From: Candidatus Latescibacterota bacterium
GTDB lineage: Bacteria > Latescibacterota > UBA2968 > GCA-2709665
Reading direction: 5' to 3'
Length of the DNA stretch: 64,000 bases
Assembly: GCA_965208835.1 (NCBI GenBank)
Contig: OZ242358.1
Location: 2,432,001 to 2,496,000 of the forward strand
Shown: positions 57,897-64,000 of the stretch, piece by piece
How the letters are laid out: each line of letters starts with the position of its first letter
How positions within the stretch are numbered: the first letter of the stretch is position 1
The notes under the pieces: generated by a model
What the model saw: the letters and a program-made list of their open reading frames with translations, nothing else
Databases searched by the model: none
What the model was told of the DNA's origin: nothing
Translations under genes and position numbers: made by a program

Positions 57897-58021
57897 AGTT
57901 CGGTTCCCGATGATTACGCGCCAATCCCGTTGAACACAGCAACTCGCATGCCTCGCGTGCGACAGCCGGCACCGCGCTTTTTAATATATCGGATCAGACG
58001 CCGCAATCAACATAAAACAGT

Positions 58022-58186
58022 TTGATTTTCGGAAGCCATTGCGCATATTTTCGACTTGACGTGGGTGTAGCGGTAGATGCAGTCGTGGTTACACCGGCGC
58101 AGATGGAACTTTACAAGGATAATCACGCGCTCGTGATGAAACCCGCATTCCGGGAGGGAAGGGTTGTATATGAGAATAGAAACTGA
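58022..58186 (+). pseudogene. 3' remnant of a minimal nucleotidyltransferase (MNT antitoxin-like) gene
   Basis: Translates as ...VGVAVDAVVVTPAQMELYKDNHALVMKPAFREGRVVYENRN*, typical of an MNT C-terminus. No GS/DxD N-terminal half is present. Confidence 0.5.
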
Positions 58187-58370
58187 TCGGGAAGAAGACG
58201 GCAGGTGGATTGCAGAAGTGCCTGATTTACCCGGTGTGATCGTTTACGGAGACAATAAAGAAGATGCCATTCTGAAAGTTAAGGCATTGGCATTGCGGGT
58301 TCTTGCCGATCGCATAGAACATGGCGAGGAAATACCGGAAATCCGTGATGTCTTCGCAGGATCGGTATGA
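58170..58370 (+). CDS. hicB: HicB-family antitoxin (short form)
   Basis: EEDGRWIAEVPDLPGV..YG....A, GEEIP. ATGA overlap with hicA. Confidence 0.82.
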   Translation: MRIETDREEDGRWIAEVPDLPGVIVYGDNKEDAILKVKALALRVLADRIEHGEEIPEIRDVFAGSV

Positions 58371-58582
58371 ATCGATGGCCTTCAACAAGAGCACGTCAGG
58401 TCTTGGCTGCCTTGTTGCGGATTGGTTGGACGATAAAGCGTCAGTCTGGTACTTCTCATCGCATACTGACGCGGCAGGGTTGGCCGAATTACGTATTCGC
58501 TTTCCATTTGCGGGAAGAAATAGGGCCTCGTATGTTGTCCCGTATTGCTAAGCGTACCGGATTGACTCCCGATGATCTATGA
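58367..58582 (+). CDS. hicA: HicA-family mRNA interferase toxin
   Basis: LAALLRIGW..KRQSG.SH, FH..EEIGP.ML.RIAK.TGL. AT-richer than the flanks. Confidence 0.85.
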   Translation: MNRWPSTRARQVLAALLRIGWTIKRQSGTSHRILTRQGWPNYVFAFHLREEIGPRMLSRIAKRTGLTPDDL

Positions 58583-58695
58583 GGTGGGATCGTTGGAGCA
58601 CAGCAATCCTTGCAGACACGACTTCAGTGAATCCGCTCGACGCTCAAGGGAAGGTAAGTGGCCGGAGTGAGGTGGCGGCATAAGGAGTTGGTCAT

Positions 58696-59385
58696 ATGAC
58701 GATGCTCTATCTCCTGCTGTTTTTGTGCGCCCTGATCGTCCTCCTTCCCGTGAGGCTGTGGGTGTGTGGCCGCAACGACGCGGGGCGGGGACCGACCCTG
58801 GATATCCGCTTGAGGCCGTGGATCGGTCTGGCGGGTATCCGGCTCTTCTACATTGACGACGGTTGGCGTGCAGGCCTGCTTCTCGGTTGGTGGACCGTGT
58901 TGGCGGTACCGTTGAGAAAGCGGGAGGTCCGGAAGAAGCAGCAGGGGCCGCGCGCGACAAAGAAGACGGAAGCGGACGTACCGGATGGGTTTTCGGCAAC
59001 GGTTGAACGGTTCGTACGGTCCGGACGGCGTTTGAGGAAGCTGTCATTGCCCCTGCGGCGGTCCGCGTTGCGACTTCTGAATGGCTTCCGGCTTCGCCGC
59101 ATAGAATGCAAGATACAGTTCGGCGCATCCGATCCGGCCACGACCGGCCGGATTTACGGATATTTCATGGCTGCCTCTTCTCTCGTGGGAGCCAGGGGAA
59201 GCGTCAACGTGACGCCCGATTTCAAGACACAGCGTCTGGACGGAGAAGCCCGGGTGGGAATCCGGGTTTATCCCCACAGGTTGATGCTGGCATCGGCTTA
59301 TTTCGGGTGGCGTGTTGCGCTTGCGTGGTATTCGGAACGACGCAGCCGTAGACACCCTGATGAGGGCATTGTCGGGGCTGTTTAG
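58696..59385 (+). CDS. DUF2953-domain (YtfI-like) membrane-anchored protein
   Basis: N-terminal TM, FG..DPA.TG..YG, .V.PDF. Lies upstream of a YtfJ/GerW gene. Confidence 0.72.
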   Translation: MTMLYLLLFLCALIVLLPVRLWVCGRNDAGRGPTLDIRLRPWIGLAGIRLFYIDDGWRAGLLLGWWTVLAVPLRKREVRKKQQGPRATKKTEADVPDGFSATVERFVRSGRRLRKLSLPLRRSALRLLNGFRLRRIECKIQFGASDPATTGRIYGYFMAASSLVGARGSVNVTPDFKTQRLDGEARVGIRVYPHRLMLASAYFGWRVALAWYSERRSRRHPDEGIVGAV

Positions 59386-59594
59386 AAGCTGTTTTAAAAT
59401 TACCGGTGAGTTCCCGAACGCGAGCGAAAAAGTGGCGGTTATGAGGCGCGAGGGGCGCGCAGCGCCGACGGGAAAATCCGCCTATGAGAGGCGAGCAGGC
59501 GCAGCCTCGATCTCGTAAGACGGGTGGATTTGACCAACGCAGACCGACGCTTTTGCAGCCGCGCGAAGACCGCCGAGAATTTTAAAACAGCTTC
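59385..59594. mobile_element. MITE family 3, intact copy
   Basis: Perfect TIR GAAGCTGTTTTAAAATT / AATTTTAAAACAGCTTC, flanked by a TTA direct repeat. Confidence 0.85.
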
Positions 59595-59607
59595 TTAGGA
59601 GGGTTTT

Positions 59608-60009
59608 ATGTCAGTTGAGGATCTCATCAGGACGGTGATGACGGAATTCCGGCAAATCGTCAAGGCGGAGACGGTCGTGGGGGAGCCGATCGAAATCGGA
59701 GGCACCGTTGTGGTGCCCGTCTCCAGGATTTCTTTCGGGTTCGGCGCCGGTGGCGGTGCGGACAAGTCGGACGGCGGCGGGAGCGGCACCGGCGGCGGCG
59801 CATCCGTGGAACCCCTGGCATTTGTCGTGATTCGAGACGGAAAGGCCCAGATTCTTCCCGTCCAGGAAAAGGAAGGATCCATCAAGGGATTGTTGGACCT
59901 GGCGCCCGACCTTCTGGCGAAAGTGAAAGCCCTTAAGGAGAAGCGAGACCGGCGAAAAGCCGAGGCGGAAGCCGACGCGGATTCCGGTGACGACGACGTG
60001 AGCGCGTAG
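59608..60009 (+). CDS. GerW/YtfJ-family protein
   Basis: TVVGEPI, VPVSRISFGFGAGGG, GGGASVEP.AF.VI. Confidence 0.88.
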   Translation: MSVEDLIRTVMTEFRQIVKAETVVGEPIEIGGTVVVPVSRISFGFGAGGGADKSDGGGSGTGGGASVEPLAFVVIRDGKAQILPVQEKEGSIKGLLDLAPDLLAKVKALKEKRDRRKAEAEADADSGDDDVSA

Positions 60010-61238
60010 TGAACCGGCTTCTGCTGCTCATTCCGACGTCAACCTACCGAACCCGCGATTTCATGGCCGCGGCGGCCGCACTCGACGTCGCCGTAGTCGT
60101 GGGTTCGGACCGCCGGCAGGCGCTCGCGGGTCTGACACCCGGAAAGACGCTTGCGCTGGACTTCGCAAGACCGGCGGCCTCGGTCGAAAAGATCGTCGCC
60201 TTTTCGAAACGGTACCCTGTCCGGACGGTGGTGGGCGTCGATGACGAGACCGTCGTGCTTGCCGCGATGGCCTGCAGCGCGCTCGGACTTCCGCACAATC
60301 CGGTTCCGTCCGTCAGGGCTTCCCGCTACAAACACCTGATGCGCCAGATGCTTGCCGAGAAAGGCCTGCCCTCGCCGGGGTTCAGGCTTTTTTCAGTTCG
60401 GGACCAACCCGCCGCCGCCGCCGCGGCCGTCGACTATCCGTGCGTACTGAAGCCCGTTTCTCTCTCCGCGAGCCGCGGTGTGATTCGCGCGGATCAAAGA
60501 GCGGAATTCGTGACTGCATTCGATCGGATTCTCGAGTTGATTTCGGAGTCCGCAGACAGCTCGCACGAGGCCGGTGATTGCATTCTGGTGGAGGACTACA
60601 TCCCCGGCCGGGAGGTCGCGATGGAGGGACTGCTTGTCGACGGTGAACTGCAGACCCTCGCATTGTTCGATAAACCGGACCCGCTATGCGGGCCCTATTT
60701 TGCCGAGACCCTTTACACGACGCCGTCCCGGCTTCCTGAATGCGTTCAGGCGGGGATTAAAGGAACTGCGCAGGAAGCAACGCGCGCGCTCGGATTGACC
60801 GTGGGCCCGGTCCACGCGGAACTTCGGCTGAACACGCGTGGGATCTATGTCGTGGAGATTGCCGCGCGGTCCATCGGCGGGCTGTGTTCGCGGGTGTTGC
60901 GGTTTGGCGCGGGCGTGTCGCTGGAAGAACTGATTCTGCGCCAGGCGACGGGTCACGCTCCGGGCGATCTACGCAGGGAAAACGCCGCTGCCGGGGTCAT
61001 GATGCTGCCGGTGCCACGGGCGGGAACCCTACGGCGCGTCCGGGGTGCGGCGGGCGCACGGCGCGTGCCGGGAATTGTCGACGTCACGATAACCGTTCCA
61101 CGGGGCCAGCCCGTTCAGCCGCTGCCCGAGGGGGACCGGTATCTGGGGTTCATTTTTGCGCGCGGGAGGACACCCGAGACTGTGGAAACCGCGCTCCGGG
61201 AGGCCAACGGACTGCTCGAGGTCGTGATCGAGGGATGA
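60009..61238 (+). CDS. ATP-grasp ligase (amino acid ligase-like)
   Basis: YPCVLKP...SASRGV, LVEDYIPGREV..EG, HAELR, EIAARSIGG, GDRYLG. Confidence 0.85.
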   Translation: MNRLLLLIPTSTYRTRDFMAAAAALDVAVVVGSDRRQALAGLTPGKTLALDFARPAASVEKIVAFSKRYPVRTVVGVDDETVVLAAMACSALGLPHNPVPSVRASRYKHLMRQMLAEKGLPSPGFRLFSVRDQPAAAAAAVDYPCVLKPVSLSASRGVIRADQRAEFVTAFDRILELISESADSSHEAGDCILVEDYIPGREVAMEGLLVDGELQTLALFDKPDPLCGPYFAETLYTTPSRLPECVQAGIKGTAQEATRALGLTVGPVHAELRLNTRGIYVVEIAARSIGGLCSRVLRFGAGVSLEELILRQATGHAPGDLRRENAAAGVMMLPVPRAGTLRRVRGAAGARRVPGIVDVTITVPRGQPVQPLPEGDRYLGFIFARGRTPETVETALREANGLLEVVIEG

Positions 61239-61252
61239 GTGGCTGCGAACAG

Positions 61253-61292
61253 GCCGGTGGACCCGGGACAGGTTCGATCGGTTTCTTTCTTT
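61253..61292 (+). terminator. Possible intrinsic terminator between the convergent ATP-grasp and radical SAM genes
   Basis: Imperfect GCCGGTGGACC / GGTTCGATCGGT stem followed by TTCTTTCTTT. Confidence 0.35.
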
Positions 61293-61305
61293 ATGATCCT
61301 TCAGG

Positions 61306-62742
61306 TCAGACAAGAGCGAACTGCTCTTCGGTGGGCTCCGCTCAGCAGTACCAGGGTTCGGTGAGGCGGGGAAGCGATCGGCGGGTCGGGTCCGCATCGA
61401 TAACGACCCTTGGTGCCGGCCGGTCCAGCATCCCGTGCACATGCGACCTGATCCTGCGGAAGATCTCTCGCCGGGGGGCGTCGCTTTTCTGGAGCCGGGC
61501 GACCAGCCGGGTCAGTTCATTCTGGAGCCGGTCCAGACGGGCGTCGGGATGCGCCCACGGGTACAAGAGGGCTTCCGGCGTGAATGTGCCCACCAGATTG
61601 CGGACCTCGGCAAGTTCCAGCAGCCTTGATTCCCCGGGGATAAGCAGCCGGATGGTGAGTTGAACGGGCGAGACGTGTTCGATCAGGTCCAGTTCGGCGA
61701 GTGTGTTCAGAAAACGGGCATACCCCTCCAACGTGATCCAGGGCGTGAACGGGATAAACGTCGGATTCATCACGAGCCGATGTCTCTTGAAGAGCTCGAC
61801 GACCTCGAAGAAGTCGTCGACCGTGTGCCCTTTGTCCAGCAGCGCGAGAACGCGGTTGTCCAGAGACTCTACGGCGGTCGTAACGAGTGCGCACCCGGTA
61901 TCTCTGAGGAGGGGCAGATAGCGCCCATTCTTCAGCAGATGTTCGATCTTTACGGTGATGTCGTAGGTTAGGTCGGGAAATCTGTGGTGCAGTTTTTCGA
62001 CAAGCGGTACGGCGTGGCCGATTCCGTTGAAGAAGTCGGGATCGCCAAACGTGATGTGTTCCGCACCCGTGGCAACCTGTCTCGCAACGTCGTCCAGCAC
62101 GATCTCCGGTTGTACAATCCGGAACCTCCCGCCGTATACGGGCACAACCGGACAGTGGCGACAGAGATGCTTGCAGCCGCGGCTCGCCTCGGTATAGCCG
62201 ACGGTTTTCAGATGCCCGTCGCCCGTGGACAGCCGTGCGTAGCGGGAAAGGTCCGGAAGGCCTGCACGGTCGGGCGGAAGAAAACGCTGCCTGGCAACGG
62301 AAACGACCGGGTCTTCCTGGTCTCCAAGGGCGCCAGAATCCTCCCGCAGGCGATTGCACAGCTGAAGCAGTCCGTTTTCGAATTCACCACCAAGTATGGT
62401 CTGTGCGCCCATGCTTCTCAGGAAGGACTCGTTGACCGAAGCATAGAGACCGTAGAAACAGAGATGTGCGTCGGAATTCAGTTTACGTACCCTTGAGACC
62501 AGTGGAACAGCAAGGCGCGTCGCGGTATGCATTGGCACGTAAAAGGCCACCAGATCGGCGTCGCGAACGTCGTCAGAAGGGAAGTCGACTATGGAAACGT
62601 CGGCCTGGACCACATCGATGTCCGCCCTCCGCAGCCACGCAGCCGGCGAGGCCAGACCGAATGGCTGTCGACCCAGTTCGTAGGTGGACACGAGTACGGC
62701 TTTGAACGGACGCGATTGGCTTGTGGTCGTCATGGGTCGCAT
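61306..62742 (-). CDS. CUAEP-tail radical SAM selenoprotein; in-frame UGA (Sec) at 61344-61342; start 62742 or 62733
   Basis: B12-binding-like N-terminal domain and CKHLCRHC motif. Tail reads TAC TGC TGA GCG GAG CCC ACC GAA GAG CAG TTC GCT CTT GTC TGA = YC-U-AEPTEEQFALV*. Confidence 0.88.
61312..61328 (-). promoter_or_regulatory. Candidate bacterial SECIS hairpin
   Basis: AAGAGC-AGUUC-GCUCUU stem-loop starting at +14 after the UGA, with a G-containing loop. Confidence 0.55.
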
Positions 62743-62745
62743 ACC

Positions 62746-62798
62746 AAAACAAACGGCAGACGACGGGGAGGTGCCCCTTGAAGTCTGCCGTTTGTTTT
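62746..62798 (-). terminator. Long hairpin between nfuA and the radical SAM gene (terminator, attenuator or stabiliser)
   Basis: Perfect 16-bp inverted repeat AAAACAAACGGCAGAC / GTCTGCCGTTTGTTTT with an inner GGGG/CCCC stem. Confidence 0.6.
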
Positions 62799-62807
62799 CT
62801 GCCGATA

Positions 62808-63392
62808 TTACTTCGAGGTCTGGTAGTAGGGGTTTGTGCCGTCCGCGTGTTCGGTAATGTCGAGAATCTCTTTGATTTCCGGCACGGCCTCCTTGATCAG
62901 GACCTCGACACCCTGCTTGAGTGTCACGTCCACCATGCCGCAGCCCTGGCATCCGCCTCCGAACTGGATGTACGCTTTGTCGTCCTTCACATCGATCAGC
63001 GAGATATGGCCGCCGTGCATGGCCACGCTGGGATTGATCTTCTCGTCGATGATGTTCTGGATCTTCTCGGCGGCCGTGCCTTTCAGATGCGGAGGAACTT
63101 TGTTGGGATTCTCGATTTTGAATCCTCTGCCCATCAGGCTGTCCACAAAGTCCAGCGTAATGTCCTCGGCATAGGGAGCGCTTACCGGGTCAATGTAGAT
63201 ATTGAACCCTTCGAACGGCGTGACGGCGTCGTCGTCCTCTTCCTGACCGCGGGCGACGAACGCGAGCCGGTAATTGGCCTGCAGCGGGGACACCGCCTCG
63301 GCCTTGACGCGAACGCCAACGATGTCCGTTTCCTGGCTCCCGATCAGGTTGACAACTTCCTTCTGCGCGGCTTCGGTAACGGTAATATTCAT
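62808..63392 (-). CDS. nfuA: Fe-S cluster carrier NfuA (degenerate A-type domain + Nfu domain)
   Basis: ITVTEAA, GFKIENPN, INPSVAMHGG, FGGGCQGCGM, D.TEHA.G.NPYY. Confidence 0.88.
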   Translation of the reverse strand: MNITVTEAAQKEVVNLIGSQETDIVGVRVKAEAVSPLQANYRLAFVARGQEEDDDAVTPFEGFNIYIDPVSAPYAEDITLDFVDSLMGRGFKIENPNKVPPHLKGTAAEKIQNIIDEKINPSVAMHGGHISLIDVKDDKAYIQFGGGCQGCGMVDVTLKQGVEVLIKEAVPEIKEILDITEHADGTNPYYQTSK

Positions 63393-63432
63393 ATCGACCT
63401 TCCCCTCGGAGAGATTGGCAGTGGCGGGACGG

Positions 63433-63927
63433 TCAGGATTCCAGCGCCACAGCTGACCTTGCGGGTTGTTCCCGGTCTATCTTTTCCTGGATCTTCATCA
63501 GCGCGGACAGCAGATCTTCGGGTCGGGGCGGACAGCCGGGCACGTAGACATCGACCGGCAGAAACTGGTCCACGCCCTGTACCAGCGTATAGGTATTGAA
63601 GACACCTCCGGACGACGCGCACGCGCCCATCGAAATCACCCATTTCGGATCCGGCATCTGGTCATATATCTTCTTGAGTACCGGCATCATCTTGATTGAT
63701 ATCCGGCCCGATACGATGAGCAGGTCGGACTGGCGGGGCGAAAACCGCACGGCTTCCGCGCCGAACCGGGCCATGTCGAAGCGCCCGGAGAGTGTCGCCA
63801 TCATTTCGATGGCGCAGCAAGCCGTGCCGAATGGCATCGGCCACAGAGACGACTTGCGCGCCCAGTTTATCATCTTTGAAAGCGTGGTAGTAATTACGTT
63901 GTCGCCAAGGCCCGTTTCAAGTCCCAT
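63433..63927 (-). CDS. nuoB: NADH-quinone oxidoreductase subunit B
   Basis: [52 protein letters not shown]. Confidence 0.92.
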
Positions 63928-64000
63928 TGAACACCTCTGAAAGGATGTCTGGATTCGTCCTGTATCTCTTACGACGGCGTGGGCGGGTCCCCGCGATACG

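Follow-up and report, generated by a model that had tools for sequence, protein, structure and literature searches.

A radical SAM selenoprotein and an ATP-grasp ligase, encoded by neighbouring genes in the window (the whole 64,000-nucleotide stretch of DNA that was analysed), make up a two-gene module that is gained, lost and kept as a pair. No published account of this radical SAM-ligase pairing was found in the literature, and in several bacterial phyla the pair would point to a two-enzyme pathway, so far unstudied, that is related to the arsenic-antibiotic (arsinothricin) pathway.

Gene content of the locus

All six genes that the initial annotation had described were confirmed in their positions (Table 1). 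The true stop codon of the radical SAM gene lies at 61306-61308, which leaves a convergent gap of 67 bp to the stop of the ATP-grasp gene, in agreement with the earlier figure of about 70 bp, and the GTG start of the ATP-grasp gene has one base in common with the GerW stop codon. The run sufBCDSU-sufT-rrf2-nuoB'-nfuA-rSAM, with gaps of 40-65 bp, ends with the radical SAM gene. The NuoB paralog (NuoB') had been described as a lone NuoB. This stands insofar as neither nuoC nor nuoD follows its gene in the window, but the gene lies within the suf operon, and a canonical nuoABCDH cluster with its own NuoB begins ~7 kb past the end of the window. NuoB' is 56% identical to this canonical NuoB, which is ~7.5 kb away.

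Table 1. Genes and sequence elements of the locus, with positions in the window.
Feature	Position	Strand	Assignment and status
DUF2953 protein	58696-59385	+	PF11167, 29 bits; flank, outside module
GerW/YtfJ family protein	59608-60009	+	PF09579; flank, outside module
ATP-grasp protein, L-amino-acid-ligase type, 409 aa	60009-61238	+	PF13535 + PF18603 (LAL_C2) + PF18130; core member 2
Radical SAM selenoprotein, CUAEP tail, 478 aa	61306-62742	-	NF040546, 607 bits; core member 1
In-frame TGA, predicted selenocysteine, residue 467	61342-61344	-	Reading frame and related loci
SECIS-like hairpin	61312-61328	-	6-bp stem, loop with invariant C-A-G-x-U
NfuA-like Fe-S carrier	62808-63392	-	PF01521 + PF01106, GGGCQGCG motif; resident housekeeping gene, recurrent module neighbour
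NuoB paralog (NuoB') in suf operon	63433-63927	-	NF005012, 241 bits against a cut-off of 116; flank, outside module

Linkage and co-inheritance of the two enzymes

We analyzed the neighbourhoods of 80 related radical SAM loci, 65 of which have at least 2.5 kb of sequence on both sides. An ortholog of the ATP-grasp gene is present in 51 of the 80 loci. Its distance from the radical SAM gene is no more than 3 kb in 43 of the 65 fully flanked loci and in 50 of all 80, and 42 of those 50 have both genes on one strand. Judged by their record titles, the loci span Gemmatimonadota, Latescibacterota, Acidobacteriota, Methylomirabilota, Actinomycetota and Proteobacteria, and gene order varies by lineage: the two genes converge in the window, the radical SAM gene precedes the ligase gene in most, and the order ligase-NfuA-rSAM is found in four loci (L009, L010, L019 and L042).

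Among 168 genomes of the window's phylum, the radical SAM family is found in 33, and the same 33, and no others, have a strong ligase ortholog (378 bits or more), i.e., 33 of 33 carriers and 0 of 135 non-carriers; the other 16 ligase matches score at most 181 bits. In a second phylum (251 genomes), 40 genomes have both genes, 1 has only the radical SAM gene, 5 have only the ligase gene and 205 have neither. The ligase is thus present in 40 of the 41 carriers of the radical SAM gene, and by our reading of the place tables 17 of these 40 pairs are unlinked. Of nine genomes in which no ligase gene adjoins the radical SAM gene, eight have an ortholog elsewhere (380 to 635 bits). Five of 45 genomes, among them G195 (unpublished), have the ligase but no radical SAM gene; Nonomuraea and G205 have the radical SAM gene but no ligase, and Bryobacteraceae loci carry a methyltransferase in the ligase's place.

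Thus, the two enzymes neighbour each other and co-occur in other genomes, as the initial annotation had expected. Because they are neighbours across phyla and co-occur genome-wide even when unlinked, a functional link between them is supported. The genes are convergent in the window and therefore not co-transcribed, which would suit unrelated neighbours brought together by chance or synteny. However, the complete match between carriers of the two genes in the window's phylum and the nearly complete one in the second, the adjacency in several phyla with differing gene orders, and the retention of the ligase even where it is unlinked leave that reading with next to no probability; barring an artefact of the genome sample, it is already refuted by the distribution.

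Boundaries of the module

The initial annotation had presented all six genes as parts of one system. The tight packing in the window, where the GerW stop overlaps the ligase start, and the same arrangement in five related loci (L001-L004 and L025) would be expected if NuoB', NfuA, DUF2953 and GerW were dedicated components. However, NuoB' adjoins the module in 6 of the 65 fully flanked loci, GerW in 5 and DUF2953 in 4, all within the window's own clade, and GerW and NfuA are nearly ubiquitous across the phylum (152 and 129 of 168 genomes, respectively). Furthermore, the flanking genes are in place in relatives that lack the module: there, the GerW gene converges directly on nfuA, and NuoB' is found in one such genome, G070, with 89% identity. 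None of the 31 genomes of a sister family (f2) has the radical SAM family, and its sufBCDSU-rrf2-nfuA run converges on gerW with ~170-215 bp between them and neither enzyme gene. Because the synteny suf-rrf2-(nuoB')-nfuA / gerW is kept in this sister family without the two enzymes, the module consists of exactly the radical SAM and ligase genes, and NuoB', GerW and DUF2953 are resident flanks and not members as had been claimed. A dedicated six-gene system is largely refuted, and we consider it very improbable.

Selenocysteine and the tail of the radical SAM enzyme

The radical SAM protein belongs to NF040546, a family of selenoproteins with CUAEP or CCAEP tails, its score being well above the cut-off of 500 bits. 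The ArsL model NF040542 matches it with 280 bits over residues 16-408; membership of ArsL itself was rejected, as this score is below the cut-off of 450 and the RCCLKC tail is absent. The radical SAM cluster motif reads C190-x3-C194-x2-C197. All 81 sequences compared have C284, C466 and U/C467, and 80 of the 81 have C95.

The reading frame ends in EPWYC-TGA-AEPTEEQFALV-TGA. An in-frame TGA follows W-Y/F-C in 73 of the 80 related loci, the other 7 having Cys-Cys (TGC/TGT), and one in-frame TGA is present in all 33 family matches of the window's phylum. The hairpin lies 14 nt 3' of the TGA and overlaps the last tail codons. In alignment A4 (74 sequences), where covariation must be read with the caveat that this is coding sequence from related genomes, columns 17-22 and 28-33 pair in 83.8% of cells, compared with at most 59% when the pairing partners are shifted, and 48 cells show double changes; the pair 17-33 occurs as AU (32), GC (23) and CG (4). 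The same genome has tRNA-Sec, selB (361 bits) and selA (564 bits) clustered at 3.536-3.540 Mb. Because the TGA/Cys position is conserved, the hairpin pairs and the genome contains selA, selB and tRNA-Sec, decoding of the internal TGA as selenocysteine is supported. The tail is also conserved after CU in the related loci. However, the sequence beyond AEPT covaries with the SECIS stem (EE..AL versus GD..A/V-P), so that much of this conservation is at the RNA level.

The ATP-grasp ligase and the nature of its substrate

The ligase profile (A2) matches BL00235 (3vot) over its full length at 1.3e-69 and BacD at about 1e-29. By these profile matches, the ATP-grasp enzyme is classed among the L-amino-acid ligases and is nearest to BL00235. 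Enzymes of the BL00235 and BacD types use free amino acids.

ATP-grasp systems elsewhere, i.e., graspetides, PGM1, RimK and LysX, work on peptides and proteins. Together with the conserved tail after CU, this would be consistent with a peptide or protein modification, in which the substrate is a ribosomal peptide, NfuA, YggX or the enzyme's own tail. Three database proteins that read as radical SAM-ligase fusions would also fit, but they look like frameshifted read-through. Against such a modification, the ligase is of the free-amino-acid type, the post-AEPT residues covary with the SECIS stem, and the small ORFs shared between loci resemble alternative frames of neighbouring genes. No conserved small ORF or precursor peptide was found in the 80 loci, the largest cluster covering 5 of them, in line with the earlier statement that no precursor peptide was seen. 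We regard this possibility as improbable.

Recurrent neighbours of the module

Genes that recur around the 80 loci are those for YggX (29), aconitase (19), DUF169 (15) and NfuA (15), and in 15 loci the NfuA gene is immediately upstream of that for the radical SAM enzyme. Within 3.5 kb, 39 of the 65 fully flanked loci have NfuA or YggX, as do 37 of the 43 with an adjacent ligase. Beside the 17 unlinked ligase genes, NfuA is found in 8 cases and YggX in 2, including two genomes without a radical SAM ortholog; this would be odd if NfuA served only the radical SAM cluster. No arsenic, metal-resistance, efflux or transporter genes recur as neighbours in the 80 loci. In two loci (L034 and L053), three genes come after that for the radical SAM enzyme: DUF169, CpaM (254 bits) and an HgcAB-like fusion (329 bits). 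Overall, gene context points to Fe-S or oxidative-stress biology over metalloid resistance. The NfuA of the system first proposed holds up as a recurrent neighbour, but not as a dedicated part, being a housekeeping gene.

The pair might accordingly work with NfuA or YggX in Fe-S or oxidative-stress housekeeping and not in secondary metabolism: C95, C284, C466 and U467 would hold either a consumable auxiliary cluster or some species of iron or sulfur, with the ligase producing a ligand or acting on a carrier and the module being part of a Suf/Rrf2 stress response. The available text on LipA and HydG describes NfuA as resupplying these cluster-consuming radical SAM enzymes. In favour of such a role are the place of the radical SAM gene at the end of the suf run, the proximity of NfuA or YggX both to the module and to unlinked ligases, the four extra invariant Cys/Sec residues, the match of YggX to NF003817 ("oxidative damage protection protein"), and, in Acidobacteriota loci, aconitase upstream and G6PD and glucokinase downstream. 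However, NfuA and GerW are resident and the module is a clean insertion beside them, so that adjacency may reflect shared regulation or a permissive site, and a large share of the YggX and aconitase signal stems from a single phylum, where it may be no more than synteny. Moreover, the free-amino-acid preference of this ligase type fits such a role poorly, and we know of no step in Fe-S biogenesis that requires an ATP-grasp ligase or an ArsL-like enzyme. We judge a housekeeping role unlikely, though a serious contender.

Proposed pathway

Our preferred reading, tentative and at somewhat less than even confidence, is a short small-molecule pathway composed of the ArsL-sister radical SAM selenoprotein and the BL00235-like L-amino-acid ligase. 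With its [4Fe-4S] cluster and SAM, the radical SAM enzyme would form a carbon-heteroatom bond, with the heteroatom held at a site formed by the Cys-Sec tail and the invariant C95 and C284; C95, C284, C466 and U467 could equally be ligands of an auxiliary Fe-S cluster. The ligase would form an amide bond from the resulting amino acid, or its precursor, to a second amino acid, and either radical chemistry or ligation might come first. The NfuA, YggX and Suf neighbours would service an oxygen-sensitive or self-consumed cluster and be regulated together with it. What the tail does, which substrate is used and how the steps are ordered are inferences, and so is the chemistry: by analogy with ArsL, transfer of a SAM-derived aminocarboxypropyl (ACP) group might precede ligation. 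With regard to organometalloid chemistry, the radical SAM enzyme is a sister to ArsL and HgcAB-like and CpaM genes occur in 2 of 80 loci, whereas no ars, efflux or resistance gene recurs and the recurrent genes are those for NfuA, YggX, Suf and aconitase.

Comparison with known systems

ArsL, which acts with ArsM in arsinothricin biosynthesis, represents a sister family of the radical SAM enzyme. Both enzymes share the canonical CxxxCxxC motif, have thiol or selenol residues side by side in a C-terminal tail, and are sometimes encoded upstream of a methyltransferase gene. In the available text of the ArsL paper, ArsL moves ACP onto As(III) bound by tail cysteines. Unlike ArsL, the window's enzyme has the tail C-U-A-E-P instead of R-C-C-L-K-C, an amino-acid ligase instead of ArsM as its usual partner, and no ars operon context; C95 and C284 appear to be extra invariant cysteines, the same text giving only six conserved ones for ArsL. 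A search of the second phylum's 251 genomes found no true ArsL.

The ligase resembles BL00235 (PDB 3vot) and BacD of bacilysin synthesis in its profile match and in having the same three Pfam domains. BacD joins a specialised amino acid to alanine and offers a model for a ligase that finishes the product, and BL00235 favours methionine as N-terminal substrate. Unlike these enzymes, the module's ligases form a distinct subfamily whose distribution follows that of a radical SAM selenoprotein and whose genes lie beside NfuA or YggX.

The rare Cys-Sec dipeptide is shared with HgcA and SAO proteins, according to the available text of a preprint (Haft 2022), which takes the motif to indicate an interaction with heavy metals and places NF040546 among the uncharacterised families. 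HgcAB-like/CpaM context is limited to the two loci named above, and the window is without such genes. LipA and HydG, in the available text, depend on NfuA for replacement of a consumed cluster; here, an NfuA-type carrier is encoded next to a radical SAM gene, and the extra conserved cysteines are a candidate second-cluster site. The enzyme has no sequence relation to LipA or HydG, and NfuA remains the neighbour of the ligase even in genomes where the radical SAM gene lies at another place. Finally, mammalian thioredoxin reductase carries a C-terminal Gly-Cys-Sec-Gly redox arm, i.e., an adjacent Cys-Sec on a flexible C-terminal tail, in an enzyme of unrelated fold and chemistry. By this analogy only, the tail of the radical SAM selenoprotein could shuttle electrons or a bound atom instead of holding a substrate statically.

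Gene content of the locus

All six genes named in the initial annotation were found in the window where it had placed them, and their positions are collected in the table together with an RNA hairpin described below. The radical SAM protein matched NF040546, the model for the 'CUAEP/CCAEP-tail radical SAM (seleno)protein', with 607.4 bits (cut-off 500), the match covering positions 2-467 of the 468 in the model. On NF040542, the model for the arsinothricin-pathway enzyme ArsL, it scored 280.1 bits, under the cut-off of 450, and on PF04055 it scored 47 bits. Among solved structures it has no close relative (best match 8e-6). NF040546 is a large family: all 8000 scored candidates of a database search belonged to it, giving at least 8000 members, and in contigs representing one genome per species 590 of 600 pattern matches were confirmed, which puts it in the genomes of at least 590 species. 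The 80 loci compared below are the best-scoring of these at least 590 and are biased to close relatives of the query.

Positions of the six genes and the RNA hairpin in the window
Feature	Position	Strand	Basis
DUF2953	58696-59385	+	
GerW/YtfJ	59608-60009	+	
ATP-grasp enzyme	60009-61238	+	PF13535 108 bits, PF18603 (LAL_C2) 67, PF18130 (ATPgrasp_N) 43
SECIS-like hairpin, 6 bp, 14 nt past TGA	61312-61328	-	covariation, alignment A4
Radical SAM selenoprotein, 478 residues	61306-62742	-	NF040546, first TGA read as Sec
NfuA-like	62808-63392	-	A-type N-domain and Nfu C-domain (both Pfam domains), GGGCQGCG motif
NuoB-like (NuoB')	63433-63927	-	NF005012 241 bits, cut-off 116

The ATP-grasp gene converges on the radical SAM gene, with 67 bp between the two stops. 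A profile of this ligase family (A2) matched the solved L-amino-acid ligase BL00235 (3vot) at 1.3e-69 over its full length (profile positions 23-415) and BacD at about 1e-29. At locus L100 (5227-7380) and in genomes G009 and G010, the ligase matched as two pieces in different frames (e.g., 380 and 263 bits), which points to a frameshift or, alternatively, to a gene split in two.

The in-frame UGA encodes selenocysteine

The radical SAM frame ends as EPWYC-TGA-AEPTEEQFALV-TGA and thus contains the C-U/C-A-E-P motif with an in-frame UGA. The initial annotation had read this end as a selenocysteine tail, and three lines of evidence bear it out. First, the position after W-Y/F-C was TGA at 73 of the 80 related loci and a second Cys codon at the other 7. 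Of 13 aligned database homologues, 11 end at WYC, as expected if the gene caller halts at UGA, and 2 run on as CCAEPT. Second, an alignment of the region after the TGA (A4, 74 sequences) revealed a SECIS-like hairpin whose pairing held in 83.8% of cells, versus at most 59% when the partners were slid, in what is coding sequence from related genomes. Pair 17-33 occurred as AU (32 sequences), GC (23) and CG (4), and the loop letters C-A-G-x-U were invariant. The last 11 codons (61306-61341) also form the SECIS stem, and the residues past AEPT switched together with it, from EE..AL to GD..A/V-P, with the hairpin kept, indicating that part of the tail conservation lies at the RNA level; a second hairpin register fits the GD-type tails. 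Third, tRNA-Sec, selB (361 bits) and selA (564 bits) lie side by side in the genome. Rfam gave no SECIS match at E <= 1 and nothing relevant in 58000-64000, and folding the single sequence downstream of the UGA gave no significant structure (z = -1.27); the signal came from the alignment. Altogether, our results show that the UGA in the radical SAM gene is a selenocysteine codon.

The cluster motif CxxxCxxC (C190, C194 and C197) was invariant in 81 of 81 sequences. Beyond this motif, C284, C466 and U/C467 were likewise invariant in all 81, and C95 was present in 80. These four Cys/Sec residues would offer four thiol or selenol ligands, compared with three in the tail of ArsL, and would be equally compatible with the binding of a soft atom or of an auxiliary cluster.

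The radical SAM and ligase genes form a two-gene module

The initial annotation had made its case depend on the two enzymes neighbouring or co-occurring in other genomes, and they proved to be adjacent in several phyla and to co-occur genome-wide. An ATP-grasp ortholog was found at 51 of the 80 best-scoring loci. Among the 65 loci flanked on either side by 2.5 kb or more, it lay within 3 kb of the radical SAM gene at 43. The figure for the full set of 80 is 50, of which 42 have both genes on one strand. Record titles assign these loci to Gemmatimonadota, Latescibacterota, Acidobacteriota, Methylomirabilota, Actinomycetota and Proteobacteria. The gene order is convergent in the window's clade, radical SAM then ligase in most others, and ligase-NfuA-radical SAM at L009, L010, L019 and L042. 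Of nine genomes from the 80 loci without an adjacent ligase, eight have an ortholog elsewhere (380-635 bits), and only that of a Nonomuraea, whose protein has a Cys-Cys tail, has none.

In Latescibacterota, the radical SAM family occurred in 33 of 168 genomes, about a fifth, with a patchy spread by family (21/21, 0/31, 3/3, 6/76 and 2/2). The same 33 genomes, and no others, had a ligase ortholog scoring 378 bits or more, and the 16 other ligase matches did not exceed 181 bits. In a second phylum, that of locus L014, both genes were found in 40 of 251 sampled genomes, the radical SAM gene only in 1, the ligase only in 5 and neither in 205, so that about a sixth (40-41/251) carry the module; genomes within one phylum are not independent samples, and many are metagenome assemblies in which single absences may be gaps. 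The five ligase-only genomes, including the unpublished genome G195, gave a best radical SAM match of 62 bits and contained no ortholog. In 17 of the 40 second-phylum pairs, the recorded positions place the two genes on separate contigs or over 10 kb from each other. Taken together, adjacency and co-occurrence indicate that the two genes very probably form one functional unit.

Three database proteins (P0129, P0131 and P0138) were considered as Rosetta-stone fusions of the two enzymes and were dropped. In the stretch corresponding to the tail, their sequences are VVLLRRA, LVLLRGA and LVLLSG, which we recognise as the PWYC-TGA DNA translated in the +2 frame; the apparent fusions thus probably reflect a frameshift with read-through from one gene into its neighbour. 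P0129 and P0131 scored 557 and 597 bits on NF040546, only up to model position ~430, and P0132 and P0134 contain obvious out-of-frame stretches. From these reading frames, it is likely that P0129, P0131 and P0138 are selenoprotein genes mis-called as fusions through frameshifts that skip the Sec codon.

Other fused forms (P0122, P0123, P0126-P0128 and P0139) are rare. An N-terminal sulfotransferase domain is fused to a ligase ortholog in P0123 and P0126-P0128 (four clusters, 454-483 bits on profile A2), and P0122 carries a ligase ortholog followed by a sulfite reductase in one protein, the five fused ligases scoring 454-553 bits. In P0139, an AMP-binding enzyme precedes the radical SAM part. 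The sulfotransferase and sulfite reductase fusions may hint at sulfur-oxyanion chemistry. None of the fusion-partner domains had a match at any of 103 loci, and there were just weak matches (64 and 66 bits), far from the module, in genome G000.

The flanking genes are resident and lie outside the module

In genomic context followed to about window coordinate 72000, the minus-strand array extends past the window end and comprises sufB, sufC, sufD, sufS, sufU, a SufT-like gene, rrf2, the NuoB' gene, nfuA and the radical SAM gene, with final gaps of 40 to 65 bp. The NfuA-like protein scored 163 bits on TIGR03341, below the cut-off of 269. NuoB' retains the CC...C...C cysteines of NuoB. It had been described as a lone NuoB, which is correct in that no nuoC or nuoD follows its gene. 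The gene sits between rrf2 and nfuA and encodes a paralog within a suf operon, and a canonical nuoABCDH operon with its own NuoB (56% identical to NuoB') lies about 7-7.5 kb off on the other strand.

The initial annotation had also counted NuoB and NfuA as parts of the candidate system and noted DUF2953 and GerW beside the ligase gene, and the comparative evidence speaks against membership of any of the four. In f2, the sister family in which none of 31 genomes carries the radical SAM family, sufBCDSU-rrf2-nfuA converges on gerW at a distance of ~170-215 bp with neither enzyme gene present; carriers thus differ from non-carriers here by precisely the two enzyme genes. NuoB' was found at one of three f2 loci examined (the module-free L101, 89% identity) and was absent from the other two. 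Across the phylum, GerW occurred in 152 and NfuA in 129 of 168 genomes, and the NfuA profile was not co-distributed with the module. Adjacency of NuoB', Rrf2, GerW and DUF2953 to the module was restricted to between 4 and 6 of 65 loci. We conclude that GerW, NfuA, NuoB', Rrf2 and DUF2953 are resident flanks. A promoter and terminator scan gave no promoters and 5 terminators against 5.3 expected.

Upstream of DUF2953, positions 58164-58582 of the plus strand carry a toxin-antitoxin pair of HicB-like (26.6 bits, cut-off 27) and HicA (42.5 bits) genes, with a GC content of 0.49 versus about 0.60 around it.

Recurrent neighbours point to Fe-S and oxidative-stress biology

All ORFs around the 80 loci were clustered, named by Pfam/NCBIfam and counted within 3 kb. 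The most frequent neighbours were YggX (PF04362; NF003817, 'oxidative damage protection protein') at 29 of 80 loci, aconitase at 19, and DUF169 and NfuA at 15 each. NfuA or YggX lay within 3.5 kb at 39 of 65 loci; among the 43 loci with an adjacent ligase the count was 37. YggX is either convergent after the ligase, in Acidobacteriota, or directly upstream on the same strand (L008, L016, L037, L056 and L080). In some acidobacterial loci, G6PD and glucokinase come next. At L014, L020, L059, L072 and other acidobacterial loci, aconitase lies upstream, and YggX, then G6PD and glucokinase, lie downstream, a set that we take to resemble the superoxide-response genes of enteric bacteria.

This neighbour theme favors the main rival to a biosynthetic pathway, namely housekeeping, with the module serving Fe-S or oxidative-stress biology. 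The same role is favored by the ligase remaining beside NfuA in genomes that lack the radical SAM gene: at 17 loci with an unlinked ligase, which include two genomes without a radical SAM ortholog, NfuA was beside it at 8 and YggX at 2. The other neighbours of the unlinked ligase (TLC transporter, DsbA, glycerate kinase and MetH-like) were lineage-specific. No arsenic, efflux or resistance gene was recurrent around the 80 loci.

The module might instead modify a peptide, the ligase and radical SAM enzyme acting on a precursor encoded nearby. Small ORFs (25-90 aa) that lie outside the named genes formed no cluster shared by more than 5 of 80 loci, which agrees with the earlier reading that no precursor peptide is present. 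A peptide-modifying role is unlikely because a conserved small ORF was not found.

Some loci without the ligase have other partners. In the Bryobacteraceae loci L031 and L058, the partner is a methyltransferase. Two acidobacterial loci (L034, 11169-13903; L053, 10363-13042) encode the radical SAM protein, DUF169, the corrinoid-protein methyltransferase CpaM (254 bits) and an HgcAB-like fusion (329 bits), an arrangement that links two orphan 'metal alkylation-like' modules. In one paper, DUF169 is set beside an HgcA-like gene of Nitrospina, and another, on candidate selenium-metabolism genes, lists it in a gene table.

Proposed function of the module

We tentatively propose that the two genes constitute a short small-molecule pathway, a reading that, with its mechanism included, we rate slightly below even. 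In the manner of ArsL, the radical SAM enzyme would alkylate an atom bound at the candidate Cys/Sec site, the ligase would form an amide either after or before this step, and the Fe-S genes would service the module as co-regulated neighbours. A more specific version, a widespread pathway in which the selenoenzyme would make an ArsL-type carbon-heteroatom bond on a soft non-arsenic atom at a candidate three-Cys-plus-Sec site, followed by dipeptide ligation, is unlikely. Its candidate substrates would include selenite, sulfite, antimonite, or iron- or sulfur-bound species from NfuA or YggX. If it were true, the module would yield organo-element amino acids of a new class or else a cofactor linked to Fe-S. 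The product of the module, once identified, would reveal either a new organo-element amino acid or a so far unrecognised connection of selenium and radical SAM chemistry with the homeostasis of Fe-S clusters in soil bacteria. The orphan family now becomes a defined, expressible target, and natural Cys-Cys pairs (e.g., L072 and L075) spare the need for Sec insertion.

Comparison with ArsL and published work

NF040546, the large sister family of ArsL, has no assigned function, and most of its members are selenoproteins truncated at Sec by gene callers. The term 'CUAEP' led to one relevant text in the literature, a 2022 preprint (10.1101/2022.07.06.499078), which describes NF040546 as uncharacterised and suggests that the rare Cys-Sec motif hints at interaction with heavy metals. 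A description of an ArsL/CUAEP-type radical SAM enzyme paired with an ATP-grasp ligase was not found in a literature search covering few subscription journals.

ArsL is reported to be the only known canonical radical SAM enzyme that cleaves SAM to aminocarboxypropyl (ACP) and makes a carbon-metalloid bond, and its ACP transfer is described as proceeding via an Fe-C intermediate. Only six conserved cysteines are reported for it, half of them serving the cluster and half in the As(III)-binding tail. No true ArsL scored above the cut-off in the 251 second-phylum genomes. No arsM, arsQ or ars operon gene recurred in the clustered neighbours of the 80 loci; the methyltransferase at L034 is CpaM and scored at most 52 bits on arsenite methyltransferase models with cut-offs of 263 to 575. 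The tails also differ: that of ArsL reads RCCLKC, in which three Cys are reported to bind As(III), whereas that of the enzyme described here reads WYC-U-AEP. What this analysis adds is a fixed L-amino-acid ligase partner, a two-gene module boundary and the company of Fe-S carriers.
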